From positions 1,305 through 65,304 of the forward strand of contig CAYGKV010000005.1 in assembly GCA_964350885.1 (NCBI GenBank): 64,000 bases of DNA. The letters run 5' to 3'. Position numbers and translations under genes: made by a program. Source of the DNA: an uncultured Candidatus Saccharibacteria bacterium (GTDB lineage Bacteria > Patescibacteriota > Minisyncoccia > Phycocordibacterales > UBA2100). The number at the start of each line of letters is the position of its first letter. Position 1 is the stretch's first letter. Of the stretch, positions 22,198 to 56,382 are shown in pieces. The notes beneath the pieces are model-generated. The model saw only the letters and a program-made list of their open reading frames with translations. It had not been told where the DNA came from and searched no databases.

Positions 22198-23076
22198 ATG
22201 AGCATAGAAAATAAAGTGATACTGGTTACAGGAGGAGCGGGATTCGTGGGTGGCAATCTCATCAAGCGGATCGTAGCCGATGGTCATCGAGTCATTTCGC
22301 TCGATGTCTACTTCTCCGGCACGAAAGATACGCACGTCGCGGGGGTGGAATATCGTGAGGGGCACACGAAAGATATTGAGCGGCTTATACCAGAACAAAT
22401 TGATGTCATATACCATCTCGGGGAATACGCGCGTGTCGAACAAAGTCTCGCAGAGCCGGACGTGGTGTGGGATCTCAATATGGCGGGCACCTTTGCGGTT
22501 GCGGAGTACTGGAGGAAGCGTGCTCTGGAAGGTAAAGCCTGCAAGCTCATTTATGCTGGATCTTCGACAAAATTTGGCGATGCAGGGCTTGCACGCGACG
22601 CGACCCCGTATGCGTGGATCAAGGCGACGAATACCGAACTCGTCCGCAATTACGGCGCATGGTACAAGCTTCCATACGCAGTTACCTATTTCTACAATGT
22701 CTACGGCCCCGGCGAACGCACAGGTCGTTACGGCACCGTGATTGCAATATTCGCTGATATGGCACGCAAAGGCCAACCAATCACTGTTACGTCCCCAGGT
22801 ACGCAAAAACGCAATTTCACGCACATCGATGACATCGTCGACGGGCTTGTTCTCGTCGGCGAAAAGGGGGAGGGTGATGGCTATGGTCTTGGTGCCGAAA
22901 AAGAATTTTCGATTCTCGAGGTCGCAAAAATGTTTTCCGACAACATTACGATGCTTCCCGAACGTGCCGGGAACCGGTCGGGCTCGGGAATTGATAATGC
23001 AAAAGCGAAAGCGCTCGGTTGGAAACAGAAGCATGACCTCCCCGACTACATCGCGAGTCTCGTCTCGCGCGCATGA
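22198..23076 (+). CDS. NAD-dependent epimerase/dehydratase (short SDR, UDP-sugar 4-epimerase-like)
   Basis: ILVTGGAGFVGGNLIKRI (Rossmann GxxGxxG)...Y..K catalytic pair region. Confidence 0.7.
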   Translation: MSIENKVILVTGGAGFVGGNLIKRIVADGHRVISLDVYFSGTKDTHVAGVEYREGHTKDIERLIPEQIDVIYHLGEYARVEQSLAEPDVVWDLNMAGTFAVAEYWRKRALEGKACKLIYAGSSTKFGDAGLARDATPYAWIKATNTELVRNYGAWYKLPYAVTYFYNVYGPGERTGRYGTVIAIFADMARKGQPITVTSPGTQKRNFTHIDDIVDGLVLVGEKGEGDGYGLGAEKEFSILEVAKMFSDNITMLPERAGNRSGSGIDNAKAKALGWKQKHDLPDYIASLVSRA

Positions 23077-24284
23077 AAAAAAAGATTCTCATTTTCTCCC
23101 TCTCGTACTACCCGAGATTTATCGGTGGTGCTGAGATGGCGATTAAGGAAATTACAGACCGGATCGATGATGCGGAGATAGAATTTCATATGGTGACGCT
23201 GCGATTTGATTCAGCGTTGCCCAAGATTGAACGTGTAGGGAATGTATTGGTGCATCGCATTGGTTTTACGCACTCGCACCCATCCATTGATGATCTGAGC
23301 CGATTTCCGCTCCACCTCAACAAGCACCTCTTTCAGTTTCTTGCGGCCTGGAAAGCCCTCTCGCTTCACCGCATGCACAGCTATGATGCGATCTGGGCGA
23401 TGATGGCACACTCGAGCGGTATTCCCGCGGTGATTTTTAAGCTCCTCCATCCGAAGGTCCCCTACATTTTGACGCTTCAAGAAGGAGATAAACCCGAAAA
23501 GATCGAGCGGATGATGGTGCCGCTCTGGCCGCTTTTCACGCGCGTTTTCAAACGTGCCGACGTTATTCAAGTCATCTCGACGTTTCTTGGGAAATGGGCG
23601 CGTCGGCGAGGTTTTGCAGGTCGACTTGAGGTGATTCCCAATGGCGTGGACGTGGCACATTTCTCGCGCGAGGAAATGCCTGCGGTCGTGAACGAGGTAA
23701 AAGATGCGCTCGCGAAAAAGATGGGGGATATATTTCTTGTTACAACGTCGCGCCTCGTGCGCAAAAATGCTGTCGATATCGTAATCTCCGCACTCCCGCT
23801 TCTTCCCGAGAACGTGCGTTTTATCGTTATCGGTGCAGGGCCCGACGACCTTTCTTTGAAGCGGCTCGCGCGGGAGCGCAATGTGGCGGAGCGCGTGCGA
23901 TTTGTTGGAGAAGTTCCGAATGCCGATCTGCCGAAATATTTGCGTGCATGTGACATATTTGTTCGTCCATCGCGCTCCGAAGGTCTCGGCACTTCTTTCG
24001 TCGAGGCGTTCGCGGCAGGTATCCCCGTCATTGCGACGCAAGAGGGAGGTATCGCCGATTTTCTTTTTGATGAAAAACGTAATCCCGACATGCCCATTAC
24101 CGGCTGGGCAGTGGATGTAGATTCTCCCGAGCAGGTGGCTCAAGCGGTGAAAGACATCATGAATAATCCAGAGAAAGCGCGCGCGGTCGTTGCGACCGCG
24201 CGCGCATTGGCTGTGGAGAAATACGATTGGAACATCGTCGCACTCGCCATGCGGGAGAAGGTGTTTTTGCCGCTTTTAGGGTGA
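23073..24284 (+). CDS. glycosyltransferase family 4
   Basis: N-terminal MKKKILIFSLSYYPRFIGGAE and a C-terminal Glycos_transf_1-like region (...RPSRSEGLGTSFVEAFAAGIPVIAT). Confidence 0.75.
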   Translation: MKKKILIFSLSYYPRFIGGAEMAIKEITDRIDDAEIEFHMVTLRFDSALPKIERVGNVLVHRIGFTHSHPSIDDLSRFPLHLNKHLFQFLAAWKALSLHRMHSYDAIWAMMAHSSGIPAVIFKLLHPKVPYILTLQEGDKPEKIERMMVPLWPLFTRVFKRADVIQVISTFLGKWARRRGFAGRLEVIPNGVDVAHFSREEMPAVVNEVKDALAKKMGDIFLVTTSRLVRKNAVDIVISALPLLPENVRFIVIGAGPDDLSLKRLARERNVAERVRFVGEVPNADLPKYLRACDIFVRPSRSEGLGTSFVEAFAAGIPVIATQEGGIADFLFDEKRNPDMPITGWAVDVDSPEQVAQAVKDIMNNPEKARAVVATARALAVEKYDWNIVALAMREKVFLPLLG

Positions 24285-24349
24285 GTGGATAACGCATTAG
24301 GATAAGTGCTCCTGAAGGTGTCTGATGATGTAAGAAAGGAGGGCCAAAC

Positions 24350-24542: not shown

Positions 24543-25598
24543 GTGGTAATGAAGCGCATTGCGGTTGTTGGGGGCGGGATATTCGGTGCGACAGCCGCGA
24601 TTTTTGCCGCACGCGCAGGGCACGAAGTGCATCTCTTTGAAAAGGAGAGCGATCTCCTACAAGCAGCCTCCGGCATCAATCAATATCGACTTCATCGCGG
24701 ATACCATTATCCGCGAAGTCCTGAGACGGCGCTTTCTGCACAGAAAGCGGAGAGAACATTTCGTGAGGAATATGGTGAGGCTGTCATTGATGGCGGTCGG
24801 CATCTGTACGGCATTGCGCGAGAGGGGAGCTTGGTAAGCGCCGCGCAGTTTCTGGATTTTTGTGATTCACAACAACTCGAATACAAAAAAGTGGAAGTAC
24901 CGGAACTTGCTGACCCCAGAATGGTCGAGCTTGTGATCGAGGGCAAAGAGGCGCGATTTGAGCCGGACACGCTCCGTGCAGTCGCCAAGAGGAAGCTGAC
25001 GGAAAGCGGTGTGCAGGTACACCTCAATACACTGGCGGGTCCGCAGCTCGCTGAATCGTTCGACGCGATCATCATCGCGACGTATGCCAATACCAGCGAA
25101 GTGCTTGGGATTTTCACGGAGGCAAGACAAGAATATCAGTACGAGGTGTGTGAAAAGCCAGTCGTATCGCTTCCCGCGAGCTTCGGCCTCACGGACCTCG
25201 TCATTCTCGATGGCCCTTTCATGTGCGTGGATCCACTCGGCACAAGCGGCCTCTATGTGCTGGGCAACGTCGTGCACGCGATACATGCGACCAACGTAGG
25301 CTACAAGCCCGAAGTACCGGAGCACCTGAAGCCATTTCTCAACAAAGGGACTATAAAAAATCCGCCCGTGACGCGTTTTGGAGCATTTATCGAAGCGGGC
25401 GTGCCGTTCATCCCACTCCTCAAAGAGGCGAAACATGTGGGATCGCTCTATACCATCCGCACGGTCTTGCCACGCATGGAAAAGACCGATGCGCGACCGA
25501 CCTTGGTGACACCACTCGGCGAAAAGTGCATCCAGATATTCTCTGGGAAAATCGGGAACTGCGTCGACGCGGCGAAAGAGGCAGTGAGTCTTATTTAA
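24543..25598 (+). CDS. FAD/NAD(P)-binding oxidoreductase
   Basis: KRIAVVGGGIFGATAAIFAARAGHEVHLFEK is a classic dinucleotide-binding beta-alpha-beta motif with the acidic residue at its end. Confidence 0.65.
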   Translation: MVMKRIAVVGGGIFGATAAIFAARAGHEVHLFEKESDLLQAASGINQYRLHRGYHYPRSPETALSAQKAERTFREEYGEAVIDGGRHLYGIAREGSLVSAAQFLDFCDSQQLEYKKVEVPELADPRMVELVIEGKEARFEPDTLRAVAKRKLTESGVQVHLNTLAGPQLAESFDAIIIATYANTSEVLGIFTEARQEYQYEVCEKPVVSLPASFGLTDLVILDGPFMCVDPLGTSGLYVLGNVVHAIHATNVGYKPEVPEHLKPFLNKGTIKNPPVTRFGAFIEAGVPFIPLLKEAKHVGSLYTIRTVLPRMEKTDARPTLVTPLGEKCIQIFSGKIGNCVDAAKEAVSLI

Positions 25599-26460
25599 GC
25601 ATTTCGTGGATCTCGAGTACTCGTGCGCCGAAGTCTCCGGCGGTCGGTGGCGTTTCTCCACCGCGGACGGCATCGAGGAAAACTCGTATCTCCTCCGCGA
25701 GCGCCGTTTTGGAGCTCTCGAAGATAATCTCGTCGCCTTTATATAACCTCGTGCCATTCCACATGAGCGTCGTGTCATCTTCGAGAGTCATGGTCACCGT
25801 GTGCACCGTTTCTTTCGAGAGTCGGTCAATGTTTGAGGTGAATTCACAGTTTTTGTATGAAAGTATTACTTCGACGCGATCACATTTTGTTTCTCCCCCT
25901 TCGCGTTTTGTTACGGACGCGGTCTCAGGCGTGCCGAGCAAATCGCAGGCGAGCGAGAGGTGATGGGTGAGAAGATTCATTTCTATCCACTCAGTAAACG
26001 TCCCGTATTTTTTCCAGATACACTCGACGCGTTTTAAGGTCTTGCCTTCTAAGAGGCGCTTTAATTCCTGGTAGACAGGGTGATAGATGAATACATAGCC
26101 GGTCATGAGTATTCGATTCTGCTTCTCCGCTAACGCGACGAGAGCGCGTGCCTGTGAGGCGGTTTCAGCCAGCGGTTTTTCGCAGAGCACATGTTTGCCT
26201 GCCATGAGGAATGTTTCTGTCATGTCTGCGTGCGTCGCAATGGGAGTGGCAACCGCCACCGCGTCTATGTCGCTTTCGGCGCTTATCTCTCCGACTTCCT
26301 GTTTTTTTGCATGCGGTATGTTTTCTTGGGCCCACGTCTCATTGTCAGCAGAACTCTGTGATGCGTATGCCACCAAATCGCTCGCCGAGGCGAGCTCGCG
26401 GGCCACGTTCTTGCCCCACCTACCCACACCGATTACTGCCGTTTTGATTGGTTGCGCCAT
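25591..26460 (-). CDS. Gfo/Idh/MocA-family NAD(P)-dependent oxidoreductase (sugar dehydrogenase-like)
   Basis: IKTAVIGVGRWGKNVAREL...VATPIATHADM...AGKHVLCEKPLA are GFO_IDH_MocA N-terminal motifs. Confidence 0.7.
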   Translation of the reverse strand: MAQPIKTAVIGVGRWGKNVARELASASDLVAYASQSSADNETWAQENIPHAKKQEVGEISAESDIDAVAVATPIATHADMTETFLMAGKHVLCEKPLAETASQARALVALAEKQNRILMTGYVFIYHPVYQELKRLLEGKTLKRVECIWKKYGTFTEWIEMNLLTHHLSLACDLLGTPETASVTKREGGETKCDRVEVILSYKNCEFTSNIDRLSKETVHTVTMTLEDDTTLMWNGTRLYKGDEIIFESSKTALAEEIRVFLDAVRGGETPPTAGDFGARVLEIHEMLK

Positions 26461-26505
26461 AGGTATACTATGCGTGAATCATCGCTCAACTGCAATGTAC
26501 ATACT

Positions 26506-27618
26506 ATGAAGATTCTTCTCACAACTGGCATTTTCTTCCCCGACGTGGGCGGGCCTGCTACCCATGTGCGCAAGATTGCCGAACACTTTGCATCCCTTGG
26601 CTGGGAGGTGACAGTGGTCGCCTTCGGCGACCACAAAGCCCTCGCCGAAAACTACCGCGTTATCCGCATCAGTCGAAAGTGGGGAAAGCTCATTTCGTGG
26701 AAGCTCTACGCGCTTGCCGTCGCTCGCGCGTCGCTGAGCGCCGACGTCATCTACGCCTTCGACCTCACGACCGCCGGCATCCCCAGCGCACTTTTCGCCA
26801 AGCTCCTCCGTAAGCCATTTATTCTGCGAATCGGTGGCGACCCTATCTGGGAGCGTATCGTCGAGGACGGAAAGCGATTCCTCCCCATGCGTGCCTACTA
26901 CGAGCAGGGACTATTCAAGCAGGATAAACCGACGCTCTACCGCGCTTTGCGTCGCGTCGTGCGCTCGGCAGATACGGTCGTGACGTATTGCGATTTCATC
27001 AGAGATATCTACGTGGAGTACTACGGTGTGGATGAGAAGAAAATGGTTCAGATTAAAAATCCGTTTCCCACAAAAGCTTCCGCAACTCTTGAGAGTGATA
27101 CGTTTACATTCCTCTTTGCAGGCCGTTTCGTTTCGTATAAGAATCTCCCGCTCATCCTCAAGGCATTCGGCAACATCGCCGCAAAGCATGCAGAAGCCCG
27201 TTTGGTACTCATCGGCGATGGGCCGGAAGAAGCGACACTCAAAAAGCAAGCGGAGGCACTGGGCGATAGGGTAGAGATAATTCCGAAGGTAGATCAGAAA
27301 ACTCTCTTCGCGCATATCAACGCCGCATCCGTGGCACTTGCACCCGCGCTCACCGAATTCAATCCCAATTTCATTCTCGAAGCGCTCGCACTCGGCAAAC
27401 CCGCCCTCATCAGCCGCGACAACGGCCTCTCGGCGAATCTCCCCGCCTCCATGCAATTCGATCCAATGGACGATGCTTCACTGCAAAGTGCCATGGAGCG
27501 CATCCTCAACCACGCGGATTACCAAACCGCCCTCCGCACCGTCGCCGAGCTGTCTATGGATCAAACCTGGGAAAAAGTCGTCGCCCAACACGCCGATATC
27601 GTCAAAAGATGTGCCTGA
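26506..27618 (+). CDS. glycosyltransferase family 4
   Basis: MKILLTTGIFFPDVGGPATHV..., C-terminal GT1 domain. Confidence 0.75.
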   Translation: MKILLTTGIFFPDVGGPATHVRKIAEHFASLGWEVTVVAFGDHKALAENYRVIRISRKWGKLISWKLYALAVARASLSADVIYAFDLTTAGIPSALFAKLLRKPFILRIGGDPIWERIVEDGKRFLPMRAYYEQGLFKQDKPTLYRALRRVVRSADTVVTYCDFIRDIYVEYYGVDEKKMVQIKNPFPTKASATLESDTFTFLFAGRFVSYKNLPLILKAFGNIAAKHAEARLVLIGDGPEEATLKKQAEALGDRVEIIPKVDQKTLFAHINAASVALAPALTEFNPNFILEALALGKPALISRDNGLSANLPASMQFDPMDDASLQSAMERILNHADYQTALRTVAELSMDQTWEKVVAQHADIVKRCA

Positions 27619-29654: not shown

Positions 29655-30698
29655 ATGAAGTTGCTCATCACGACACAGATTGTCGATCGCACGGACCCAT
29701 TCTTGGGATTTTTCCACGGCTGGATAGCAGAGCTCGCGAAGCATTTCGAACATGTTGAAGTCATTTGTCTGCGCGAGGGGAAGCATGAGCTCCCCGCGAA
29801 CGTGCGCGTGCATTCGCTTGGGAAGGAGAAGGGTGCGCGTTCGCGCATCGCGTATGCAGTGCGATTTTTGACGCTCGTGTGGAAATTGCGCGGTTCCTAC
29901 GGCGCGGTCTTTGTGCACATGAATCAGGAATACATACTGCTCGCGGGCTGGCTCTGGAGGCTGCTTCGCAAGCCGATTCACCTGTGGCGCAATCACTACG
30001 CGGGAGGATTTCTCACGGATGTCGCGGCGATGTTCGCCCGAAAAGTATTTTGCACATCACGATACTCATACACCGCAAAGTACTCGAAGACCGTGATAAT
30101 GCCCGTTGGCGTAGATGCGGAATTATTCGCACCGAGCGCCTCAACGCGCGCTCCACGCTCTATACTTTTCTTTAGTCGGTTTGCTCCTGCAAAAAAACCG
30201 GACGTGCTCCTCGAGGCACTCGCAATTCTTTCGAAAGAGGGAATTCAATTTGAGGCGTCATTTTATGGCACCGCGCTTCCTTCTGACGCGTCGTATCGTG
30301 ATGAAGTAATTGCTCACGCGCGCAAGCTCGGGCTCTCTGACACGGTAAAATTTCACCTCGGGGTACCGCATAGCGAGGCGCCGGCGATATTCAACAAGCA
30401 CGAAATATTCGTGAATCTTGCGTCGAGTGGCACGTACGATAAGACGATGTTTGAAGCCGCCGCATGCGGCTGTCTCGTCGTCGCAGCGAGCAAAGATTTC
30501 GCGGCAATCGTGGGCGAGCACTTCCTTGTAAAAGATGGCCACGCAAAGGACGTGGCAGACAAGCTTCGTGAGCTCCTCGCGCTTTCTCTGGAAGAACGTT
30601 CGCCCCTTGCTTCAGAGCTTCGCGAGACCGTTCTCCGAGGACACAGCCTACCGTTTCTTGCGCAGCGTATAATGGCAGAAATATCTGGAAAAGAATGA
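29655..30698 (+). CDS. glycosyltransferase family 4
   Basis: C-terminal Glycos_transf_1-like region (EIFVNLASSGTYDKTMFEAAACGCLVVAA). Confidence 0.7.
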   Translation: MKLLITTQIVDRTDPFLGFFHGWIAELAKHFEHVEVICLREGKHELPANVRVHSLGKEKGARSRIAYAVRFLTLVWKLRGSYGAVFVHMNQEYILLAGWLWRLLRKPIHLWRNHYAGGFLTDVAAMFARKVFCTSRYSYTAKYSKTVIMPVGVDAELFAPSASTRAPRSILFFSRFAPAKKPDVLLEALAILSKEGIQFEASFYGTALPSDASYRDEVIAHARKLGLSDTVKFHLGVPHSEAPAIFNKHEIFVNLASSGTYDKTMFEAAACGCLVVAASKDFAAIVGEHFLVKDGHAKDVADKLRELLALSLEERSPLASELRETVLRGHSLPFLAQRIMAEISGKE

Positions 30699-38226: not shown

Positions 38227-38392
38227 CGGTGAAGGGTAGAGGGCGTTGGCGCGTGCGCGAACCTCTTTGATCAGGAGCAAGAGGTTGGCGACCATACGTA
38301 GGCCAAAGTGTAGCATATTGCTCAGAATCGCATTCTAGCTCCGTATTTCACGCGATGGTATAGTGTACCCTTAAGTGTTTTTACAACATACC

Positions 38393-39364: not shown

Positions 39365-39366
39365 TC

Positions 39367-43351: not shown

Positions 43352-43409
43352 GCTACAGCGAAAGCTCTCTGTGAGCCAGTAATACCTCGTATGATACAAT
43401 CCGGCGCGT

Positions 43410-45741: not shown

Positions 45742-46355
45742 GCGCCAAGCCCAAAGTATCTCGAGCCGTCGTAGAGCGGTACGATCTGACATTCGAGGAA
45801 TTCAAACAATTCGAGCGCCAAGTATTGGTGCAAGAGCATTTGAAACGCTATGGATCCATAAGGAGATTCTGCTTCGGGGATGTGCTCGATTTCGCATGTG
45901 GATGTGGATACGGCTCCTATATGCTCGCGCTGAATCCTGATGTAACATCGGTTGTGGCTGTAGACAATAGCAAAGAAGCTGTTCAATGGGCAAAGGAACA
46001 TTTCTCGCATCCACATATAACCTACAAGGTCGCGGATGCGCGCGAGGTCAAGGGCACGTTCGATACGCTCGTGTGCCTCGAAACAATTGAACATCTCAAA
46101 GATACGCGGATAATTCCGCAGATAGTTGAGAGATGTGCAATATCGAATCTCATAATTTCATTCCCCGACAAGAAAACCACACACTACAACTCTCATCATT
46201 TTCATGACTTTGTGCGGCAGGATATCGTCGACCTGTTTCCCAAACACGTCGTCTACCACGTGATCCGATTTGCGGATAGCACGGCGGTCTTGCTCACCAG
46301 ATTGTCCGACAAAGCACCCTCCGAACTTTTCAGGAATATCCGCGATCTCGGTTGA
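45738..46355 (+). CDS. class I SAM-dependent methyltransferase
   Basis: VLDFACGCGYGSYMLA (motif I), ...LVCLETIEHL. Confidence 0.7.
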   Translation: MSAKPKVSRAVVERYDLTFEEFKQFERQVLVQEHLKRYGSIRRFCFGDVLDFACGCGYGSYMLALNPDVTSVVAVDNSKEAVQWAKEHFSHPHITYKVADAREVKGTFDTLVCLETIEHLKDTRIIPQIVERCAISNLIISFPDKKTTHYNSHHFHDFVRQDIVDLFPKHVVYHVIRFADSTAVLLTRLSDKAPSELFRNIRDLG

Positions 46356-48107: not shown

Positions 48108-49313
48108 CTACTCTAAAACATGAGGGGTAATGAATTTTAGGTGAGGGAATTTGGGAGAGATTTTGGATTTCAAGAAATCCGCGATATTCCAGGCGAGAAT
48201 GAGAGCGTGAGTGACCTCTTCGTTTATAGCGTCGTCAGAGCGTATCGGAAGGTGCGAACCGGGGGTATATTTGCCGATCTTTAAAGGAGATGCGTCGGTA
48301 GCGAAGTCGATCAGCGTCGTGTCTATGCCACAGTAGTTTAAGAGCGTATTTCCTTTGGCAGCTGCGCCTATTGCGACAACTTTCCCGCCTCCCAATCGAG
48401 CATCCACTAATTCTTTAAGCAACCGCATCTTGCATTCCCTCACGCTTGCTGCGAATGCACCCCACGTTTCTACGGAGTAAAGTCCTGATTCCTCCTCCAG
48501 GGCTATTTGCGTTTTGACCAAGGGGCTTTCTGTGCCGAATCCGACAAAGATCCGTATCGATCCGCTCATGTAGTCATTTTCCTCAAGGTGGGTTATAGAA
48601 AGACCGAACTTTTTGAAAAAGGGCACAAGAGGCTTCACAGCGATATATGAGACGTGCTCAAGGTACACGACATCAAAATGTTTTTTCCTGATAACTTCCA
48701 GGAAGTAGGGAAGTTCAATGACAAAGCTGCCGCTTTTGTCCAAAATGGAAACTACAGATTCCATGAATTCATCAAGAGGGGAAATGTGATTGAATGCGTT
48801 CGTTATGGTAATTGCTTTTGCCCGACCTTTTTTCAAGATTATTTTGGCGGACGAATCGTTGAAAAAATCATTGATCGTAGGAATACCATTCTTCTCAGCA
48901 AGCGCCACGATATTTGAAGCCGGATCCACTCCTTGGATCGTTGCTCCAAGAGCTTTGAATGCACCAAGGAGTGTGCCTACGTTGCTGCCTATATCCACCA
49001 CAAGCTCTCCCTTCTGTACGCCCGCGCGCTCGGTCACCTCCTGTGCCATATCCGTGAAGTGTTTTACTGAGATCTTAGAATTGCCGGAATCATAACTGTA
49101 GTCATTTTCTTGGTAGCGGATTTCTGCGGGTACGACGAAACTGTTCATCCCGTGCCCGCAATTCCGACAAAGAAGTACGGAAAGAGGGTACCGTCGCTCT
49201 GGTTCTTGAAGCTGGTTCTCCTTGAGAAAGAAGTCCGCTAGCGGATGGAATCCCAAATCAAGGACCTTCTCCAGGTCTTTCGAGCCGCACAAATGACAGT
49301 TCGTGACGTTCAT
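48108..49313 (-). CDS. NDP-hexose C-methyltransferase paralog (TylCIII family), lower GC
   Basis: CHLCGSKDL...CRNCGH zinc ribbon, VVDIGSNVGTLL motif I and a C-MT C-terminal domain. Homologous to the gene at 40025-41296. Confidence 0.7.
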   Translation of the reverse strand: MNVTNCHLCGSKDLEKVLDLGFHPLADFFLKENQLQEPERRYPLSVLLCRNCGHGMNSFVVPAEIRYQENDYSYDSGNSKISVKHFTDMAQEVTERAGVQKGELVVDIGSNVGTLLGAFKALGATIQGVDPASNIVALAEKNGIPTINDFFNDSSAKIILKKGRAKAITITNAFNHISPLDEFMESVVSILDKSGSFVIELPYFLEVIRKKHFDVVYLEHVSYIAVKPLVPFFKKFGLSITHLEENDYMSGSIRIFVGFGTESPLVKTQIALEEESGLYSVETWGAFAASVRECKMRLLKELVDARLGGGKVVAIGAAAKGNTLLNYCGIDTTLIDFATDASPLKIGKYTPGSHLPIRSDDAINEEVTHALILAWNIADFLKSKISPKFPHLKFITPHVLE

Positions 49314-49699
49314 AGAGGAATTGTATCGTCGACAAAGGGGCCATCCTTAAAGGCGTACATGAGGGCATCCTCGATGACCCGTATCTCATGACCACCTTGT
49401 AGCATCAACAGGCATTGGCCGGCCGTAACATTTTTCTTCTCGATCAGGTCGCCTTTGTTGTCAAAAATACTCGCCTCAATCGCGCCCTTGATGACAACGA
49501 TTGCCTCCTGCGGCTGCTGGGTGGTCTTCGGGATCTTTTTGTGGGTATGTTTTGCAACCACATGGCCACTCTTCCGCTTCATGAGGAGTAATTGGATTGA
49601 GTCCCTAGGATCCGTGACAGGAAACGCGCCCTCCTGGATCGATTCAAGATCCACGATAACCGCAAACATTTCTCCTCCCGATCTGATCTCAGTTATCAT
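49310..49699 (-). CDS. cupin-fold protein, WxcM/FdtA-like candidate NDP-sugar 3,4-ketoisomerase
   Basis: Small cupin with an HTHKK motif resembling the FdtA His pair. Located between the C-MT and gmd paralogs. Confidence 0.4.
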
Positions 49700-50660
49700 G
49701 TGGGTGAGCTAAGTCATAATCCACCATTGCCCGGACAATTTCGTGGAATTTCATTTTCGGTTTCCATCCGAGCTTCTCTATCTTCGAAGCATCTCCCAAA
49801 AGCAGGGGCACCTCGTTGGGCCGTTTATATTTGTCGTCTATTCTCACAAACTTTTTTGACTCAAGGCCCACATATGAGAACGCTTCTTCGACAAACTCTC
49901 GTATTGTGTGAGTCTCTCCCGTTGCCACAACGTAGATATCAGGCTTTTCCTGCTGCATTATCAGATATATAGCTTCCACAAACTCGGGGGCCCATCCCCA
50001 GTCGCGTTTTGCGTCCAGATTGCCCAACACGAGAGAATCTTGTAGACCCAGCTTAATCTTTGCTACTGCCTTGCTGACCTTTTTTGTGACGAATGTACCC
50101 CCACGTCTCGGACTCTCATGGTTGAAGAGTATTCCCGTAGTGGCAAACATACCGTACCCATCTCTGTACTGTCTTGTTAGGTGAAAGGCCGCCAGCTTAG
50201 CGACCCCATAGGGACTCTGGGGTACCATCGGAGTATTTTCGTTATATGGCGGAGGTGTCCCCGGCACACCAAACATTTCCGAACTCGACGCCTGATAAAA
50301 TTTGGTATAAGGGGATAGTTTCCTTAGAGCTTCAAGAACATTTAATACACCGACCGCATTCGCCTCGAGGGTGTATTGCGGCACCTCAAAGGATACTTTT
50401 ACATGAGACATGGCTCCGAGATTATAGAATTCATCAGGTTTAACTTCTGAAATGATGCCGGATATTGATGGGCTGTCGGTAAGATCACCATGGTACGCGT
50501 GAAAATTTGGATTTCCGACAATGAGGTGATCTATCCGGGCTGAGGCAAAAGAAGAGAGGCGGCGCATTATCCCGTGCACTTCGTATCCTTTTGAGAGAAG
50601 AAGCTCCGCTAAATATGAACCATCCTGACCAGTTACTCCGCTAATGATCGCTTTTTTCAT
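49689..50660 (-). CDS. gmd: GDP-mannose 4,6-dehydratase paralog (short form, lower GC)
   Basis: [25 protein letters not shown]...[10 protein letters not shown]...SPYGVAKL...[12 protein letters not shown] are canonical GMD motifs. Confidence 0.8.
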
Positions 50661-50694
50661 ATGTGAGACACCAATATATCACACATCAAACTTT

Positions 50695-51621
50695 CTATCC
50701 TTTATTTGTAAACCACTTGTACGTTTGTGCCAGTCCGTCCCGAAGTGCGATTTTATGGTGCCACCCAAGCGCGTGGATCTTGCTTACATCGAGGAGTTTT
50801 TGCGGCGTGCCGTCTGGTTTCGTCGTGTCCCAAACTATCTTTCCTTCATATCCGACAATCTTTTTCACCATCTCCGCGAGGTCTTTTATGGTTACGTCTT
50901 CTCCGGTGCCGATATTGATGATGGAAGGGTCGTCGTAGGTTTCCATAAGGAATACGCAAGCATTTCCAAGATCGTCGACATGCATGAATTCTCGTCTTGC
51001 AGAACCAGAGCCCCACACCAAGACTTCGGGAGCTCTCTTTTCCTTCGCCTCGTGGAAACGTCGTATGAGTGCGGGGAGGACATGCGAGCGCTCGGGGGAG
51101 AAGTTGTCGTTCGGGCCGTAAAGATTCGTTGGCATGACGGAGATGAAGTTTGAGCCGTACTGGCGATGATACGCCTGACATAATTCAATACCCGCGATCT
51201 TGGCGATGGCGTACGCACTGTTGGTTTCTTCGAGCGGGCCAGTCATTAAGTACTCTTCTTTGAGTGGTTGGGGAGCGAATTTTGGATAGATGCAGGAGCT
51301 ACCGAGAAATAGAAGTTTCTTCACGCCACTTACATGCGCTTCGTGTAAGACATTCGTCTGCACGATGAGATTTTCACGGATGAAATCTGCCGGGAATGTA
51401 TTGTTGGCCATGATGCCCCCGACCCGTGCGGCGGCGAGGAAGACGTACTCAGGTCGCTCAGTCTCGAAGAAATTTCGGACGGCTGTTGGGTCTAAAAGCT
51501 CCAGTTCCTCGTGGGTTCGAAGAACGATATTGCCGTATCCGCTTTCCCTGAGTTGTCGGACAATGGCCGAACCCGCGAGTCCTCGGTGTCCCGCGACGTA
51601 TATTTTTGCATCCCTCTTCAT
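50695..51621 (-). CDS. fcl: GDP-L-fucose synthase (GDP-4-keto-6-deoxymannose 3,5-epimerase/4-reductase)
   Basis: KIYVAGHRGLAGSAIVRQL...FLAAARVGGI...LLFLGSSCIYPK...SAYAIAK matches Fcl/WcaG. Confidence 0.85.
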   Translation of the reverse strand: MKRDAKIYVAGHRGLAGSAIVRQLRESGYGNIVLRTHEELELLDPTAVRNFFETERPEYVFLAAARVGGIMANNTFPADFIRENLIVQTNVLHEAHVSGVKKLLFLGSSCIYPKFAPQPLKEEYLMTGPLEETNSAYAIAKIAGIELCQAYHRQYGSNFISVMPTNLYGPNDNFSPERSHVLPALIRRFHEAKEKRAPEVLVWGSGSARREFMHVDDLGNACVFLMETYDDPSIINIGTGEDVTIKDLAEMVKKIVGYEGKIVWDTTKPDGTPQKLLDVSKIHALGWHHKIALRDGLAQTYKWFTNKG

Positions 51622-52100
51622 ACTTTTTTCAACGCTTTGAGTGCTCCCTCGATTCGGGCTCTAACATTAGGATGGATGTCATCGTCATCCACAGAAAACC
51701 AACGTTTCTCACTATGCTGGCTGTCTAAGACAACGACCTCATCGGAGAGCATATGCACAAAGTATACATCGACGGCATGATAGTTTACTCCTTCAAAAAT
51801 CGAAGAATCATTTATCTCGTTTAAAACCCCCGCATACAAAAGTGCGTCCGGAGGAATGGACAAATCAAGCTCTTGCTTTCCGATACGGCAGGCCGCATCC
51901 AAGAAATTCTCATTCTTATAGAGCCGTCCGCCAAAACTGTAAAATTGCCCCGCGTATGGTTCATTCGTTCGCCTTCCCAGAAGTATCTTCGTTTTGTCAT
52001 GGTTCAGGAATATGACATCGACGGTCATGATCGGCAGATTTTCCATCGCCGTGCGGTAGAGCTCGAGTGGCAACTTTCCCACTATGCGTCGCTCGTTCAT
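51618..52100 (-). CDS. gmm: GDP-mannose mannosyl hydrolase (NUDIX)
   Basis: 160-aa NUDIX protein ([39 protein letters not shown]). Its start overlaps the gmd stop (ATGA). The ORF track's long N-terminal extension is Arg-rich junk. Confidence 0.7.
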
Positions 52101-53155
52101 GCGCCTTGTTTGTCCACCATCGCGAGGTCGGCCTCTATCATGATACGGATAAGCTCTTTGAATCTCACTTTCGGCTTCCACCCCAGTTCCTTTCTCGCCT
52201 TCGATGCGTCGCCAAGGAGGATATCCACTTCCGCTGGCCGGTAGTAGTGCGGGTCTATCTCTACGAGCACCTTTCCGGTCTTCTTGTCGATGCCTTTTTC
52301 CTGCCTTCCCTTGCCTTTCCACACGATATCGAATCCCAGTACCCGCCCGGCCTCTTCGACGAGCTCGCGGACTGAGTGTGTTTCGCCGGTTGCGAGGACA
52401 TAGTCGTCGGGGGTCTTTTGCTGCAACATAAGCCACATACCCTCCACGTAGTCTTTGGCGTATCCCCAATCACGTTTTGCATCGAGATTACCGAGGTAGA
52501 TCTTATCCTGCAGCCCACGGCTGATACGAGCGAGTCCCGCGGTGACCTTGCGTGTGACGAACGTCTCCCCACGCCGTGGAGATTCGTGATTGAAGAGAAT
52601 GCCATTCACGGCAAAAAGTCCGTAGCTTTCGCGATAATTCTTCGCTATCCAAAAGCCAAATACTTTCGCGCATCCATACGGTGAGCGTGGATGGAAGGGC
52701 GTTGTCTCCTTCTGTGGTGTTTCTGCAACTTTTCCAAACATCTCTGAGGACGATGCTTGGTAGAAACGTGTCTTGATGCGGGTCTCTCGAATAGCATCGA
52801 GCATACGCAAGGTTCCGAGAGCGTCCACGTCGGCGGTGTATTCCGGGATGTCGAAGCTCACGCGCACATGACTCTGCGCGCCGAGATGATATATCTCGTC
52901 AGGCTTCACTTTCTCGAGGATACGATTCAGACTACTTCCATCGGAGAGGTCGCCATAATGGAGCTTGAGCCGACGATCCCGCTCGGGGAGTTTTTCGAAG
53001 AGATGCTCAATGCGCCCGGTATTGAACGTGCTCGCGCGGCGGATAATGCCATGCACCTCGTATCCTTTTTCAATGAGGAGCTCGGCGAGATAGGAACCGT
53101 CTTGTCCGGTGATTCCCGTGATGAGCGCTCTTTTGCGAGCTTTGTTTTTTGCCAT
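52097..53155 (-). CDS. gmd: GDP-mannose 4,6-dehydratase
   Basis: [31 protein letters not shown]...[10 protein letters not shown]...SPYGCAKV...[15 protein letters not shown], full length. Confidence 0.9.
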
Positions 53156-53239
53156 TCGGCGCATTATACGTTGCAAGCACGAAGCGGGTCAAACAGCAGT
53201 TGCCTTTCGTCACGGTGCAGACTAGACTGATCCCATCAT

Positions 53240-54100
53240 ATGAAGGGTAAGAAAAAGCCAAAATGGGCTCCCGATTTGTCTACGCGTAGCGTAGCTACAA
53301 ATCGCAGTCCTGTATGGGTCGCCGTCTCCGGAGGCTTTGATCCCCTCCATGTCGGGCACGTGCGTATGTTCAAAGAAGCGCGGAATCTTGGCGACAAGCT
53401 TATGGTCATCATCAACAATGACAATTGGCTTCAACATAAGAAAGGGTTTGTCTTCATGCCACAAAGAGAGCGTGCGGAGATTGTGAAGGAGCTTCCATTT
53501 GTGGACAAAGTGGTTTTCACGGACCACGGGATCAAAGACCCTGATCGAAGTATTACGCGCTCGCTTAAGAAATTCAAACCGGCGATTTTCGCCAACGGCG
53601 GCGACCGTAAGGGTGTCAAAGATATTCCCGAGGTGGCAATTTGCGAAGAGCTTGGCATCAAAATGGTGTTTAACGTCGGGGAAGGGGGGAAAGTACAATC
53701 TTCTTCGTGGATGGTTGGCGCTTCTCGTCGGCCTGCCGCGCAAACGATCAGGCCGTGGGGGAGATTCTTCGGGTGGGATAGCGGGAAGGGGTGGTATCTA
53801 AAAACAATATACATAGCGGCCGGTAAAAGGCTTTCACTGCAGTTCCATCATCATCGCTCGGAATACTGGATGTTGGTCGAAGGAGATGCAACGGCGACGA
53901 TCCAAAAAACCGGCGAGAGGCCACAGCGCGTAGCGTTAAAGAAAGGGCAGGTCATACACGTCGACACGAAAGTCGTACACCGCTTGGAATCCAAGCGGGG
54001 CGGTGTTGTCGTGGAGATTGCTGTCGGGAATTTTGATGAGAACGACATCGTTCGTATCGAGGATGATCATGGGCGAGCACCCGGGGTTCTCCTCAAGTGA
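53240..54100 (+). CDS. fusion protein: cytidylyltransferase-like nucleotidyltransferase (HxGH) + cupin (type II phosphomannose-isomerase-like)
   Basis: VAVSGGFDPLHVGHVRMFKEA (HxGH of the CTP-transferase / RfaE-domain-II family), then WGRF...GKRLSLQFHHHRSEYWMLVEGDA (cupin, MPI-like). Confidence 0.55.
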   Translation: MKGKKKPKWAPDLSTRSVATNRSPVWVAVSGGFDPLHVGHVRMFKEARNLGDKLMVIINNDNWLQHKKGFVFMPQRERAEIVKELPFVDKVVFTDHGIKDPDRSITRSLKKFKPAIFANGGDRKGVKDIPEVAICEELGIKMVFNVGEGGKVQSSSWMVGASRRPAAQTIRPWGRFFGWDSGKGWYLKTIYIAAGKRLSLQFHHHRSEYWMLVEGDATATIQKTGERPQRVALKKGQVIHVDTKVVHRLESKRGGVVVEIAVGNFDENDIVRIEDDHGRAPGVLLK

Positions 54101-56382
54101 GTCGTGATAGAATGTCGACCATGTTACTTGAGAAGACGTTGCGGTGGGTTGTAATTGGGGGGATATTTTCTCTCACGGCTATTCCGTTCATAGTCTCGAC
54201 CTCGCTTTTCTTCCCCTACATAACAGGAAAGAATTTTACCTTCAGAATTATCGTCGAGATAATGACGGGAGCGTGGCTTGTCCTCGCACTCGTCTACCCG
54301 CAATACCGGCCTCGTCGTTCTTGGATACTCACTGCGTTTACGGTATTTGTGCTTGTGATCGGTCTTGCAGATGCGCTCGGTGCGTATCCCTTCAAGAGTT
54401 TTTGGAGCAACTATGAACGCATGGATGGTTGGGTAACGATCGCACATCTTCTTATGTACTTGTTTGTTGCTGCATCTGTCATGACTACTGAGTTGTTGTG
54501 GCGACGACTTTTGTATGTTTCGCTCGCATTTTCGACGTTTGTCTCAATCTATGGATTTTTGCAAATACTTGGAATTACTGGAATCGGTAACAACAGCCCT
54601 GGCGGGCTTGGAGCTCGTATCGATGCGACGTTTGGCAACCCCATCTACTTGGCAGTCTATATGCTCTTCCACATTTTTATCGCACTTTGGTTGTGGTCGC
54701 GGGCGTGGGAGGAGCGGCGGGCGGGTAGCCGACTCTCGGTTTCACTACTTTTTTGGTTTGTAATTGTTGTCGATACGCTCATCCTCTTCTTTACCGGCAC
54801 GCGTGGCACGATACTCGGACTTCTCGGAGGGTCATTGCTCACTGCAACTCTGATTGTTCTCTTTGCTCGGAGTTCGCCGCTTGCCTGGCGCATCGCACTT
54901 GGGTACATTCTTGCAATTCTCATCGCAGCTGGAAGTTTCTGGATAGTTCGTGATGCCGCATGGGTAAAAGAAATTGGCTTCTTGAATCGCCTCGCAACCA
55001 TCTCGTCTTCCGAGAATGGCGTTAAGGCGCGCTTTATCAACTGGTCTATCGCGTGGGAAGGCGTGAAGGAAAGGCCTCTGCTTGGGTGGGGGCAAGAAAA
55101 TTACGCGGTTGTGTTTGATCGATACTACGATTCGCGCATGTACGCACAGGAGCCGTGGTTTGATCGCGTACACAACATCATTTTTGATTGGCTCATTGCT
55201 GGTGGATTCTTCGGGCTCTTGAGCTACCTCTCTATTTTTGCTGCGACATTGTGGGCACTCTGGCGACCGAGCGTCGAGCGAGGAAGTACTGAGATCAGCA
55301 GGCCGAACGTGAGAAAAGAATTCTCGACCGTTGAGGCAAGTATCTTTACAGGGCTCTTGGCTGGATATTTTTTCCACAATTTCTTCGTGTTCGATAACAT
55401 TACGAGCTACATCCTCTTTGCCACCGTCCTTGGGTACATTGCGTGGCGGAGCAGCGCGGCATCTGACGACCCTCCGTTTTGGCAGGGTTCGCTACCAAAA
55501 AATCTGGCATCGTTTCTTACGATAGGAGCGATCTTCCTCGTTTGGGGCGCGTATATGATGGTCAATGCTCCTGCGCTCTCCCAAAACAAAACCCTCCTTC
55601 AATCTCTTGTTCCACAAGCGGGAGGAATATCACAGAACCTTGAGATAATTAAGCGTGCTATTGCAATCGGCGCATTTGGTACACAGGAAGCTCGTGAACA
55701 ATTGGCGCAGATGGCATCTCGAATTGCGGGATCAGCCGAGGTCAGTCAAGCGCAAAAGCAGGCCTACTATGAAACAGCCACTTCCGAGATGCTGCTCCAG
55801 TACAAGGAATCTCCACTCGACGCTCGGGCGCCGCTATTTTTGGGCATCATTCATAATACATTTGGTAATTACGCAGCAGGGGCTGAGGCGCTCGCACTCG
55901 CGCTCTCGCTTTCACCCGGGAAACAATCGATCCTTTTTGAAATTGCACAGAACGCGGAAGCGCGTGGAGATTCAAGTGCGGTTATGAAAGCGCTTGAGGC
56001 CGCATATGAGGAAGAGCCCGCAAACGCGCAAGCACGGATATTGTACGCGTCGGTCCTGATCCGATCCGGCAATTATGCGCGTAGCGATGAAGTACTTGCG
56101 CCGCTTATATTGACGGGGGAGGCGGCCGATCCTCGAATCGCGGCAGCGTATCTCGCAAACAAGCGATTCGACAAGATAGTGGCGGTGTGGGAGGCGCGCG
56201 TGAAGGCGCAGCCGCGCGACCCCCAGGGATATTTCACCCTTGCGGCCGCGCACCATGCGATGGGTAATTCTGCGAAAGCGATCGCAACCCTCGATGTGGC
56301 TGCTGCTCTTTCTCCCGAAGTAGCGCAGCAGGCGGCGGCATTTATTCAGCAGATTCGAGACGGGACGGTACAGATTCAGTAA
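54097..56382 (+). CDS. O-antigen ligase (Wzy_C)-family polytopic membrane protein fused to C-terminal TPR repeats
   Basis: ~12 TM helices with the characteristic large periplasmic loop. The C-terminal ~300 aa contain TPR-like helical repeats (ALALALSLSPGKQS..., AIATLDVAAALSPE). Confidence 0.65.
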   Translation: MSRDRMSTMLLEKTLRWVVIGGIFSLTAIPFIVSTSLFFPYITGKNFTFRIIVEIMTGAWLVLALVYPQYRPRRSWILTAFTVFVLVIGLADALGAYPFKSFWSNYERMDGWVTIAHLLMYLFVAASVMTTELLWRRLLYVSLAFSTFVSIYGFLQILGITGIGNNSPGGLGARIDATFGNPIYLAVYMLFHIFIALWLWSRAWEERRAGSRLSVSLLFWFVIVVDTLILFFTGTRGTILGLLGGSLLTATLIVLFARSSPLAWRIALGYILAILIAAGSFWIVRDAAWVKEIGFLNRLATISSSENGVKARFINWSIAWEGVKERPLLGWGQENYAVVFDRYYDSRMYAQEPWFDRVHNIIFDWLIAGGFFGLLSYLSIFAATLWALWRPSVERGSTEISRPNVRKEFSTVEASIFTGLLAGYFFHNFFVFDNITSYILFATVLGYIAWRSSAASDDPPFWQGSLPKNLASFLTIGAIFLVWGAYMMVNAPALSQNKTLLQSLVPQAGGISQNLEIIKRAIAIGAFGTQEAREQLAQMASRIAGSAEVSQAQKQAYYETATSEMLLQYKESPLDARAPLFLGIIHNTFGNYAAGAEALALALSLSPGKQSILFEIAQNAEARGDSSAVMKALEAAYEEEPANAQARILYASVLIRSGNYARSDEVLAPLILTGEAADPRIAAAYLANKRFDKIVAVWEARVKAQPRDPQGYFTLAAAHHAMGNSAKAIATLDVAAALSPEVAQQAAAFIQQIRDGTVQIQ

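Follow-up and report, generated by a model that had tools for sequence, protein, structure and literature searches.

The tuaABCDEFGH operon of Bacillus subtilis, which makes an anionic cell-wall glycopolymer in a monoderm, encodes a UDP-glucose 6-dehydrogenase (UGDH)-type enzyme together with GT4, GT2, Wzx-like and Wzy/O-antigen-ligase-like proteins. A GT2 polyprenol-phosphate-sugar synthase, a small GtrA-type flippase and a GT-C glycosyltransferase with multiple transmembrane (TM) segments and an acidic motif in the first outer loop characterise the three-component extracytoplasmic glycosylation systems GtrA/GtrB/GtrV, ArnC/ArnT and mycobacterial PpgS with its GT-C partner. Type II phosphomannose isomerase (PMI)-GDP-mannose pyrophosphorylases (GMP; ManC/AlgA/XanB, TIGR01479) join an N-terminal nucleotidyltransferase to a C-terminal PF01050 cupin and have a gmd neighbor in deoxyhexose loci. 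In Coxiella burnetii, genes for Gmd, a TylCIII-type NDP-hexose C-methyltransferase and a GMER/Fcl-type epimerase-reductase occur side by side, and an in silico proposal for virenose runs from GDP-mannose through Gmd and a 3-C-methyltransferase to GMER (PMC3539893). These gene and domain combinations are shared with the locus described here, which lies at 22198-56382 of a 64,000-nt stretch of contig CAYGKV010000005.1 (GCA_964350885.1). This whole stretch is called the window below.

Patescibacteria make up a large share of bacterial diversity and are attached to other cells, and their envelope biochemistry is almost uncharacterised. We give a probability of about 0.7 to the proposal as a whole that this is a chromosomal surface-glycan biosynthesis locus of a Candidatus Kaiserbacteria (Patescibacteria/candidate phyla radiation) genome. 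It is a largely ordinary surface sugar-polymer cluster. A dehydrogenase without a UDP-binding domain, placed in a triad with two GT4 enzymes, and an HxGH-type nucleotidyltransferase joined to a PMI cupin are uncharacterised, widespread variants within it.

Gene content and setting of the locus

Thirty genes were packed into the locus with hardly any intergenic space, and open reading frame (ORF) analysis showed that 4-nt overlaps were common (Table 1). Domains were called at Pfam gathering thresholds and NCBIfam curated cut-offs, applied to window ORFs taken as genes. PF00534 scored above its cut-off in all six GT4 domains, counted as four stand-alone genes and two fused domains; three GT2 and two GT-C (PMT_2) domains were also present. 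Tailoring enzymes of the short-chain dehydrogenase/reductase (SDR) fold comprised two general SDRs (22198-23076 and 38375-39364) and three proteins of the GDP-mannose branch (Gmd, its paralogue and Fcl). A sequence-only reading of this DNA had listed GT4, GT2, GT-C, Wzx, GtrA, O-antigen-ligase-tetratricopeptide (TPR), epimerase, DegT, FAD and Gfo/Idh/MocA proteins, and every one of these domain calls held. Its two sugar C-methyltransferases (Methyltransf_13/14) were likewise recovered. Its count of five S-adenosylmethionine (SAM) methyltransferases was too high, as we found three intact class I enzymes (34862, 41298(-), 45738) and one degenerate fused domain.

Four gene fusions had been reported in that reading as atypical. 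All four were present as claimed, each as a single intact ORF with no internal stop and with both domains above the Pfam gathering thresholds. Identical copies of the fusion proteins were recovered from 2-6 contigs; the sources were NCBI, Logan and ENA, the last with no fewer than three separate assemblies. For the GT4+UGDH-like protein (fusion 1), more than 115 full-length clusters were found at 44-92% identity, the named ones being Kaiserbacteria, Parcubacteria or Paceibacterota. For the GT4+GT-C protein (fusion 2) there were 27 clusters of full-length members (47-100% identity); in relatives the GT-C is unfused (~560 aa), and an SDR gene stands at the place of the fused GT4 in one of them (L003). 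The methyltransferase+GT2 protein (fusion 3) matched 653 representatives at E<=1e-30, and about 100 of the best 150, with full-length clusters counted at the 50% level, covered both domains at 33-59% identity. The HxGH nucleotidyltransferase+PMI cupin protein (fusion 4) had 4558 matches, and the best 120 all contained both domains (63-100% identity). The four fusions are therefore genuine inherited architectures that are recurrent or standard in Patescibacteria and hence not rare, and the word atypical does not suit them.

The best protein matches were to Candidatus Kaiserbacteria and Parcubacteria, which agrees with the earlier guess of a small-genome episymbiont. GC content was flat, at 0.48-0.55 across the locus versus 0.49-0.54 in the flanks. 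Both flanks are housekeeping in character, with MurA, a riboflavin operon, Mur ligases and an L,D-transpeptidase/PBP5 fusion on the left, and secA and gatB on the right. In L004, a Parcubacteria locus with a fusion protein 60% identical to that of the window, the left border keeps the order TP_methylase, DUF4015, type IV secretion system (T4SS)-coupling-like ATPase, lamin-tail-domain protein, SDR, GT4, GT4, GT4 joined to the dehydrogenase, and GT4. The right border in L006, L007 and L090 consists of gmd divergent from the gene of fusion 4, then Wzy_C-TPR, then secA, with Wzy_C-TPR as the conserved right-hand anchor. Gene content between the anchors varies even among close relatives. The locus behaves like an O-antigen or capsule locus, with a fixed position, conserved ends and a variable cassette.

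Two other explanations were considered. The window comes from a single MEGAHIT metagenome contig (ENA ERZ27247828, k141_536987, 64,216 bp), and the fusions could in principle be products of missed stops, frameshifts or chimeric contigs. Uninterrupted ORFs, repeated recovery of the exact proteins across databases, two-domain full-length homologues of all four fusions from 33% identity upward and catalytic motifs that are invariant in both halves make such artefacts extremely improbable, and this explanation was rejected given conservation over so large an evolutionary distance. The second explanation is that the whole 34 kb is a horizontally acquired mobile island; the sequence-only reading had called it an island. 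Glycan loci are often exchanged, the middle of this one differs between close relatives, and a T4SS coupling-protein-like gene (19337-21379) is found a short way left of the locus. Against this, GC content matches the flanks, no integrase was found among the scanned window genes, no tRNA borders the locus, the flanks hold Mur ligases, secA and gatB, and both ends, together with the T4SS-like and lamin-tail-domain genes, are syntenic in genomes only 60% identical. The flat GC, the lack of an integrase or flanking tRNA and the syntenic ends thus argue that the locus is not a mobile island, a reading we rejected as very unlikely. Cassette exchange inside the variable middle is likely.

A short dehydrogenase between two GT4 enzymes

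Fusion 1 consists of a GT4 domain (GT4a, residues 1-345), a disordered linker (349-359) and a UGDH-like dehydrogenase (DH, ~360-645) with UDPG_MGDP_dh_N at 401-496, a central domain at 521-606 and the motif GGHCFIKD at 589-596. Only in the NAD-binding and central domains can the C-terminal 285 residues be aligned with UDP-glucose 6-dehydrogenases. PF03720, the UDP-binding domain, gave no match at E<=0.01 in fusion 1, and the protein ends 49 residues past the catalytic motif (D596 of 645). Residue conservation was judged on an alignment of 65 family members. Invariant residues were the Rossmann glycines G366/G369/G371/G374 (GYVGQGFIGK), AVPTP 413-417, S445-T446, PEFL 468-471, E523, K526, N530, C592, K595 and D596; T446, E469, K526, N530, C592, K595 and D596 make up the catalytic set. 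The catalytic Cys named in the sequence-only reading is C592. A 10-residue Gly/Arg/His-rich insertion precedes this Cys (region 574-590) and carries the invariant H576 and R586; the C-terminal helical tail is also strongly conserved. In the GT4 EX7E pair, E280 was invariant and E272 was kept in at least 90% of members. By these residues, both halves look catalytically competent.

An AlphaFold2 (AF2) model of fusion 1 had a pLDDT of 85.8, with domains that were individually confident. Foldseek matched the GT4 of this model to MshA/BshA and the DH to human UGDH 2q3e (323 columns, 3.1 A), and TuaD and AglM were among the best NCBIfam matches of the DH. We also considered packing of the GT4 nucleotide-binding domain at the site of the missing UDP domain, for which AF2 gave no claimable interface.

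A scan with two dehydrogenase motifs located the short DH in GTDB species genomes at no fewer than 567 loci, most of them in Patescibacteria, and neighborhoods were examined at 80 of them. The GT4a-DH fusion was seen at 21 of the 80. At four others (L026, L028, L031, L034) the DH was fused to the downstream GT4b orthologue (34-37% identity over the whole length), and a tandem DH-DH protein was found once (L065 2870-4714; P0113). Seven loci had no GT4a match (E<=1e-10) in the fetched flank. Nearly all of the remaining 47 had a separate GT4 upstream of a stand-alone DH of 283-320 aa, and one was a broken DH ORF near a contig end. Because the UDP-binding domain has been lost, the same two GT4 neighbors are nearly always present and the DH is fused to either of them, the best interpretation is that it forms the center of a GT4a-DH-GT4b unit of three enzymes. 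Some short-DH records at ~60% identity are titled "uncultured Gammaproteobacteria" (L078, L079, L080), and one at 40% (L046) is titled "Nanoarchaeia"; these titles are probably deposit labels and not the true taxon.

A nucleotidyltransferase-cupin fusion beside gmd

In fusion 4, an HxGH nucleotidyltransferase domain (NT, residues 25-160) is followed by a type II PMI cupin (166-280), as the sequence-only reading had described, and both Pfam matches were above threshold. The cupin is bona fide, with 70.6 bits against PF01050 (cut-off 23.6). PF00483 (NTP_transferase) gave no match in fusion 4, where PF01467 was present instead. Against TIGR01479 the protein scored 68.9 bits (cut-off 372.95), with the cupin aligning to positions 358-466 of 467. 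The N-domain resembles RfaE domain II, TagD (glycerol-3-phosphate cytidylyltransferase) and ECT, and reached no equivalog cut-off; TIGR02199 (RfaE domain II/HldC) gave 62.5 bits versus a cut-off of 181.5, with the HxGH invariant.

Across 45 sequences, H37/G39/H40 of the HxGH motif and the KVQSSS motif (K151-Q-S-S-S156) were invariant in the N-domain. In the cupin, R171-P-W-G174 and the tetrad Q201/H203/E208/H247 were invariant, the latter spaced as cupin motifs 1 and 2. We take this Gln/His/Glu/His tetrad to be the metal-site composition of phosphomannose isomerases. By Foldseek, the N-domain was structurally nearest to 3glv (target TM-score 0.79) and 4xsv; the cupin matched many generic cupins and also the Thermococcus PMIs 7zvy and 7zvm (target TM-scores 0.76-0.80). 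CapF, the top match of the whole NT-cupin model, was discarded as a topological coincidence (~16 A rmsd), and the comparison was confined to matches of the single domains.

Genomic context ties this protein to mannose. The NT-cupin gene adjoins gmd in the window and in L005, L006, L090 and L092. In L096 and L097, with proteins ~43% identical to those of the window, NT-cupin, gmd and fcl lie on one strand, and in L096 only 8 nt separate NT-cupin from gmd, with a 4-codon overlap into fcl. The NT domain also occurs as a stand-alone gene: in L144 (5968-8752) it stands in a row with a haloacid dehalogenase (HAD)-type phosphomannomutase (PMM, PF03332), a PMI cupin and a GH130 mannoside phosphorylase. 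The stand-alone NT gene has a GH130 neighbor at 11 loci, and at six a PMM-like gene comes directly after it. Further loci that tie the stand-alone NT to mannose genes are L114, L117, L122, L134, L138, L141, L145, L147, L150 and L163. GH130 phosphorylases release alpha-D-mannose 1-phosphate (PMC4264767), and the NT/GH130 operons suggest a mannoside-salvage route into NDP-mannose. Read most simply, this context points to the HxGH domain as a mannose-1-phosphate nucleotidyltransferase. It would then represent a mannose-1-phosphate (GDP-mannose) pyrophosphorylase class that is new and non-homologous, and fusion 4 would by analogy reproduce the logic of ManC (GMP+PMI) with a non-homologous transferase fold.

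GT-C, methyltransferase and GT2 genes

Fusion 2 joins a cytoplasmic GT4 to a GT-C domain (PMT_2/GT39-like) and a C-terminal outer domain of ~125 aa. The GT-C domain had been predicted with at least 12 TM segments, and ~13 hydrophobic segments were found (369-792); it scored 42.3 bits against PF13231 (cut-off 26.1). Directly after TM1, PYHQDEWK (P390-Y-H-Q-D394-E395-W-K397) was invariant in 32 sequences and fits the acidic motif that GT-C enzymes are expected to carry in the first loop.

The N-domain of fusion 3 (PF13489, 40.1 bits, cut-off 27) is 29% identical (E 1e-31) to the product of the next gene, which follows with a 4-nt overlap. The alignment check proposed with the sequence-only reading was run and confirmed loss of GxGxG: motif I reads VLHAGADSAA in fusion 3 versus ILEIGCGTGD in the stand-alone paralogue, and the acidic Asp of motif II, at the end of strand 2, is His. 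With both motifs lost, an active fused domain was rejected, and the domain appears to be a pseudo-enzyme. Many homologues of fusion 3 retain GxGxG and the acidic residue; therefore, degeneration in the window is secondary. The dead domain is likely structural and would partner the active paralogue. The GT2 domain of fusion 3 resembles AglJ and dolichyl-phosphate hexose transferase (NCBIfam).

Triple fusions of PMT_2, methyltransferase and GT2 in the same order were found in P0280, P0283 and P0288 (913-952 aa), and the three genes adjoin in the window and L003. These fusions and this adjacency indicate that the GT-C, the methyltransferase and the polyprenol-phosphate-sugar synthase form one functional module. 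With a second GT2 (39343-40032), a second GT-C (43410-44594) and GtrA, the locus contains two such sets. In P0304 (832 aa), LPG_synthase_TM takes the place of the GT-C before methyltransferase and GT2, and P0411 (780 aa) is an SDR epimerase+methyltransferase+GT2 protein.

Table 1. Genes of the locus, with positions in the window and the matches on which each call is based (E-values unless bits are given)
Feature	Position	Strand	Evidence
SDR epimerase/dehydratase, first gene of conserved left core	22198..23076	+	PF01370 1.4e-40; position likewise filled in L003, L004
GT4 glycosyltransferase	23073..24284	+	PF00534 7.8e-37; best NCBIfam TuaC, 103 bits, cut-off 550
FAD-dependent oxidoreductase, DAO family	24543..25598	+	PF01266 5.5e-14
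Gfo/Idh/MocA NAD oxidoreductase, probably sugar 3-dehydrogenase type	25591..26460	-	PF01408 7.8e-24; weak inositol 2-dehydrogenase and UDP-GlcNAc 3-dehydrogenase matches
GT4 glycosyltransferase	26452..27618	+	PF00534 7.3e-21
Fusion 1, GT4a + UGDH-like dehydrogenase, 645 aa	27711..29648	+	PF00534 8.4e-29; PF03721 1.3e-14
GT4b, third member of GT4a-DH-GT4b triad	29655..30698	+	PF00534 1.8e-16
Fusion 2, GT4 + GT-C, 918 aa	30695..33451	+	GT4; PMT_2 PF13231 1.2e-10
Fusion 3, degenerate methyltransferase + GT2, 469 aa	33456..34865	+	Methyltransf_23 PF13489 4e-10; GT2 4.4e-20
Intact stand-alone class I SAM methyltransferase, paralogue of fusion 3 N-domain	34862..35530	+	PF13489 1.5e-18
DegT/DnrJ/EryC1 pyridoxal-phosphate sugar aminotransferase	35590..36804	+	PF01041 4e-93
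GT2 glycosyltransferase	36813..37790	+	PF00535 6.9e-10
GtrA-like small membrane protein, putative polyprenol-phosphate-sugar flippase	37846..38316	-	PF04138 1.2e-26
SDR epimerase/reductase	38375..39364	+	PF01370 2.4e-54; Fcl-like 182 bits, below cut-off
GT2, polyprenol-phosphate hexose synthase type	39343..40032	+	PF00535 8.6e-18; AglJ, dolichyl-phosphate hexose transferase and PpgS matches, all below cut-off
NDP-sugar C-methyltransferase (Zn-finger + methyltransferase + C-terminal domain)	40025..41296	+	PF08484 6.8e-42; PF08421 1.4e-17
Class I methyltransferase, Methyltransf_24	41298..42089	-	PF13578 2.7e-06, 28.6 bits, cut-off 26.3
Wzx-type (MOP) flippase	42086..43459	-	PF01943 9.1e-12, 45.4 bits vs 28.2; ~12 hydrophobic segments
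Second, stand-alone GT-C (PMT_2) membrane glycosyltransferase	43410..44594	+	PF13231 2.7e-07; 9 hydrophobic segments
Soluble protein, possibly divergent GT-B glycosyltransferase	44596..45741	+	sub-threshold GT4 matches only, E 0.02-0.05
Class I SAM methyltransferase	45738..46355	+	PF13649 4.5e-12
Secreted LamG protein (signal peptide, long Ser/Thr/Gly-rich region)	46503..48083	+	PF13385 3.2e-19; N-terminal hydrophobic segment
Second NDP-sugar C-methyltransferase	48108..49313	-	PF08484 3.5e-35; PF08421 4.7e-17
Small WbuC-like cupin	49310..49699	-	TIGR04366 33.4 bits, below cut-off 42
Second GDP-mannose 4,6-dehydratase-family protein: gmd paralogue or Rmd-like reductase	49689..50660	-	TIGR01472 423.3 bits, cut-off 415
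GDP-L-fucose synthase-like, Fcl/GMER	50695..51621	-	NF047922 497.4 bits, just under cut-off 500
NUDIX hydrolase, GDP-mannose mannosyl hydrolase-like	51618..52100	-	PF00293 8.3e-10; NF011963 62 bits, below cut-off; start re-assigned, ATG at 52100 most likely instead of 52469
Gmd	52097..53176	-	TIGR01472 578.8 bits, cut-off 415
Fusion 4, HxGH nucleotidyltransferase + type II PMI cupin, 286 aa	53240..54100	+	CTP_transf_like PF01467 5.2e-12; MannoseP_isomer PF01050 1.7e-19
Wzy_C (O-antigen ligase/polymerase family) + C-terminal TPR	54097..56382	+	PF04932 1.9e-15, 57.4 bits vs 31.7; TPR families; 11 hydrophobic segments

Other elements of the window

The 686-nt gap between Wzy_C-TPR and secA contains a hairpin of ~80 nt (56532-56611, +). 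Its core retains 94-97% identity between genomes in which protein identity is only 50-80%. Compensatory changes occur at seven outer base pairs, and the + strand of the window is favored by an invariant G-U. No Rfam family matched the hairpin at E<=1 except for a chance miRNA match, and ARAGORN was negative. A copy in L090 (~9170-9250) is also on the + strand. Copies on the opposite strand, inverted relative to the flanking genes, were found in four relatives: L007 (~9368-9440), L006 (~11823-11881), L089 (~7678-7742) and L092 (~9303-9363). The hairpin is probably an unclassified small RNA gene. Further downstream, a 16-codon Lys-rich ORF (MAKKKKAKKAKAKKRR; 56914-56964, +) is followed at 56971-57036 (+) by a hairpin and a GC-rich hairpin with a T-run. 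Between the end of this region and the start of secA there are 33 nt. The region is shared, in conserved form, with L090, L006 and L007 and has a weak PyrR-like attenuator match (E 0.18). It may provide leader-peptide or attenuator control of secA.

Sulfate-activation genes adjoin NT-PMI and Wzy_C-TPR in L006 (6817-9250) and L007 (3909-5939). They encode ATP sulfurylase/APS kinase, an inositol-phosphatase-family protein (possibly a CysQ-type PAP phosphatase) and a possible sulfotransferase, which suggests that these genomes make sulfated glycans.

Directly left of the locus, the T4SS coupling-protein-like ATPase (TrwB/TraG, 19337-21379) is paired with a membrane-anchored lamin-tail-domain protein (21306-22187), and the same pair occurs in L004. 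One 524-aa protein (17929-19503) combines an L,D-transpeptidase (YkuD) and a D-Ala-D-Ala carboxypeptidase (Peptidase_S11). Rfam, run over the whole window, found only an FMN riboswitch (RF00050, 101.8 bits, 2798-2914), which lies outside the locus and upstream of the riboflavin operon at 2973-5721 (Lum_binding/ribE, DMRL synthase, GTP cyclohydrolase II, RibD). This operon is followed by an F420-0:gamma-glutamyl-ligase-like gene (6433-7167), and such cofactor biosynthesis is notable for a reduced genome. The sole tRNA call in the window was an ARAGORN tRNA-Leu(CAG) at 5737-5819, ~16 kb left of the locus. It is doubtful, as no tRNA reached the Rfam gathering threshold and the call overlaps the start of a HAD hydrolase ORF (5706-6458).

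Discussion

The gene content supports a glycan in which uronic acid and an amino sugar occur with 6-deoxyhexoses (fucose- or rhamnose-type) and with C- and O-methylated sugars. This agrees with the methylated deoxy/amino-sugar product that the sequence-only reading had proposed, since gmd, fcl, a second gmd-like gene, two C-methyltransferases, DegT and O-methyltransferases all fit. Of the GDP-L-fucose pathway enzymes, Gmd scored above its equivalog cut-off and Fcl just below. A Wzx flippase and a Wzy_C-family polymerase/ligase were both present above cut-off. Canonical ManC, PMM and full-length UGDH were sought within the window and none was found. No S-layer gene was identified in the window. 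Wzy_C proteins include O-oligosaccharyltransferases, and the Ser/Thr-rich LamG protein, by its sequence, is a candidate glycosylation target and the only one in the locus.

From the observed gene content and context we infer the following chemistry. The left core (22198-30698), with its SDR, two oxidoreductases, three stand-alone GT4s including GT4b, and the GT4a-DH fusion, would build a conserved oligosaccharide on a membrane-bound acceptor. Within it, the DH would be a catalytically competent sugar 6-dehydrogenase that is coupled to GT4a and GT4b and introduces uronic acid. In the middle (30695-48083), two polyprenol-phosphate-sugar synthase GT2s, GtrA and two GT-Cs may decorate the glycan at the outer face of the membrane. 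DegT, the SDRs, the C-methyltransferase at 40025-41296 and the class I methyltransferases would supply amino-, deoxy- and methylated sugars, and Wzx would flip the lipid-linked unit. In the right module (48108-56382), the cupin of fusion 4 is predicted to convert fructose-6-phosphate to mannose-6-phosphate, and its NT domain to convert mannose-1-phosphate to NDP-mannose, presumably GDP-mannose, in place of a canonical ManC. Gmd, Fcl, the Gmd paralogue, the small cupin and the C-methyltransferase at 48108-49313 would then yield GDP-fucose and C-methyl-6-deoxyhexoses, and Wzy_C-TPR would polymerise the product or ligate it to its final acceptor.

Several observations weigh against this proposal. 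An initiating phosphoglycosyltransferase (PF02397/PF00953), an LCP ligase and a chain-length regulator were all missing among the scanned genes of the 64-kb window (the transferase and regulator may lie elsewhere in the genome), and the product may therefore be wall-linked (teichuronic-acid-like), a glycolipid or a protein O-glycan. For the DH, the score against the NCBIfam nucleotide-sugar-dehydrogenase model (TIGR03026) was 114.2 bits versus a cut-off of 189.8, over model positions 71-278 of 413, and AF2 gave no confident GT4-DH interface (pTM 0.56, linker disordered). The short DH could be a conventional UDP-glucose (or UDP-ManNAc/GlcNAc) 6-dehydrogenase that feeds soluble UDP-uronic acid, with fusion a mere convenience of co-expression. 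We regard this as a real, if on balance doubtful, contender: every canonical catalytic residue is kept, the nearest solved structures are UGDHs, TuaD and AglM are among the best-matching families, and the combination of UGDH, GT4, Wzx and Wzy-like proteins fits the logic of a teichuronic-acid operon. It sits poorly with the absence of the PF03720 domain throughout the family, whose stand-alone forms are as short as 283-320 aa, with the score under the curated family cut-off, and with the replacement of the UDP-binding domain by the Gly/Arg/His-rich insertion and the conserved helical tail. In addition, the DH is fused to the upstream GT4 in some genomes and to the downstream GT4 in others, which argues for a physical three-enzyme unit. 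We therefore favor action of the DH inside a GT4a-DH-GT4b complex over a free UDP-glucose dehydrogenase, its substrate being the donor or an already transferred residue. A tentative and somewhat unlikely version is that GT4a transfers a hexose to the membrane-bound acceptor, the DH oxidises C6 in place and GT4b extends the uronic acid. If true, this would be a route to uronic acids without a UDP-uronic acid pool.

The assignment of mannose-1-phosphate to fusion 4 faces its own difficulties. The NT domain is alone at 64 of 83 loci, with GH130 and/or PMM-like neighbors in at most 15 of the 83, counts that rest on short flanks. As most stand-alone NT genes are without a mannose-gene neighbor, the NT substrate may be broader or different. 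L096 also encodes a canonical NTP_transferase, and enzymes of the HxGH superfamily are known to use ATP or CTP and not known to use GTP. It is thus conceivable that the HxGH domain activates another phospho-compound (heptose-1-phosphate, glycerol or ribitol phosphate, or a cofactor precursor) and that the cupin is an NDP-sugar isomerase or epimerase and not a PMI. The best N-domain families, all below cut-off, are RfaE domain II, glycerol-3-phosphate cytidylyltransferase and ECT, and most stand-alone NT homologues have no gmd nearby. We consider this alternative unlikely, given the PF01050 match with RPWG and the PMI-typical tetrad, the Thermococcus PMIs among the fold matches of the cupin, and the operons that tie NT to HAD-type phosphomannomutase, PMI cupin, GH130 and gmd-fcl.

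The O-antigen-like organisation, with fixed ends and a variable middle, means that the glycan locus of Patescibacteria can be found and compared systematically. A very widespread dehydrogenase family is tied to two glycosyltransferases and may make uronic acids by a route unseen in model bacteria. The HxGH-fold enzyme, currently annotated only as "adenylyltransferase/cytidyltransferase family protein", may explain why a canonical GDP-mannose pyrophosphorylase seems to be missing from these genomes. In the open-access literature we found no description of a GT4-UGDH fusion, a truncated UGDH, an HxGH+PMI protein, a GH130 and cytidylyltransferase combination or Patescibacteria glycan-locus proteins, which is weak evidence; for virenose, the Coxiella proposal was the sole precedent that turned up.

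Compared with the known systems, the locus departs from each in definite ways. For the GT4 and DH of the window, the named models with the best scores include TuaC and TuaD, and the scores are far under the equivalog cut-offs (103 vs 550 bits; 74 vs 700 bits). Unlike in tuaABCDEFGH, the dehydrogenase is fused to a GT4 and has no UDP-binding domain, no TuaA-type initiating transferase is found in the window, and GT-C/GtrA modules, C-methyltransferases and a GDP-mannose branch are added. The DH shares with canonical UGDHs (2q3e, 3phl, 1dli) the NAD Rossmann fold, the central helical domain, the catalytic Thr/Glu/Lys/Asn and the Cys and Asp of GGxCxxKD. It differs from them in lacking approximately the last third of the protein, in its 10-residue insertion before the Cys and in its near-constant linkage to GT4 genes.

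In the three-component systems of the GtrA/GtrB/GtrV, ArnC/ArnT and PpgS types, the components resemble those of the window except that one GT-C of the window bears an N-terminal cytoplasmic GT4 and one GT2 bears an N-terminal degenerate methyltransferase-like domain. The virenose route of Coxiella differs in that the window has two C-methyltransferases, a second Gmd paralogue, a WbuC-like cupin and a GDP-mannose-forming candidate of another fold. That candidate, fusion 4, follows the domain order of type II PMI-GMP, but its N-domain has the HxGH fold of PF01467 in place of the GT-A-like PF00483, and the protein has 286 aa compared to the 467 positions of the PMI-GMP model.

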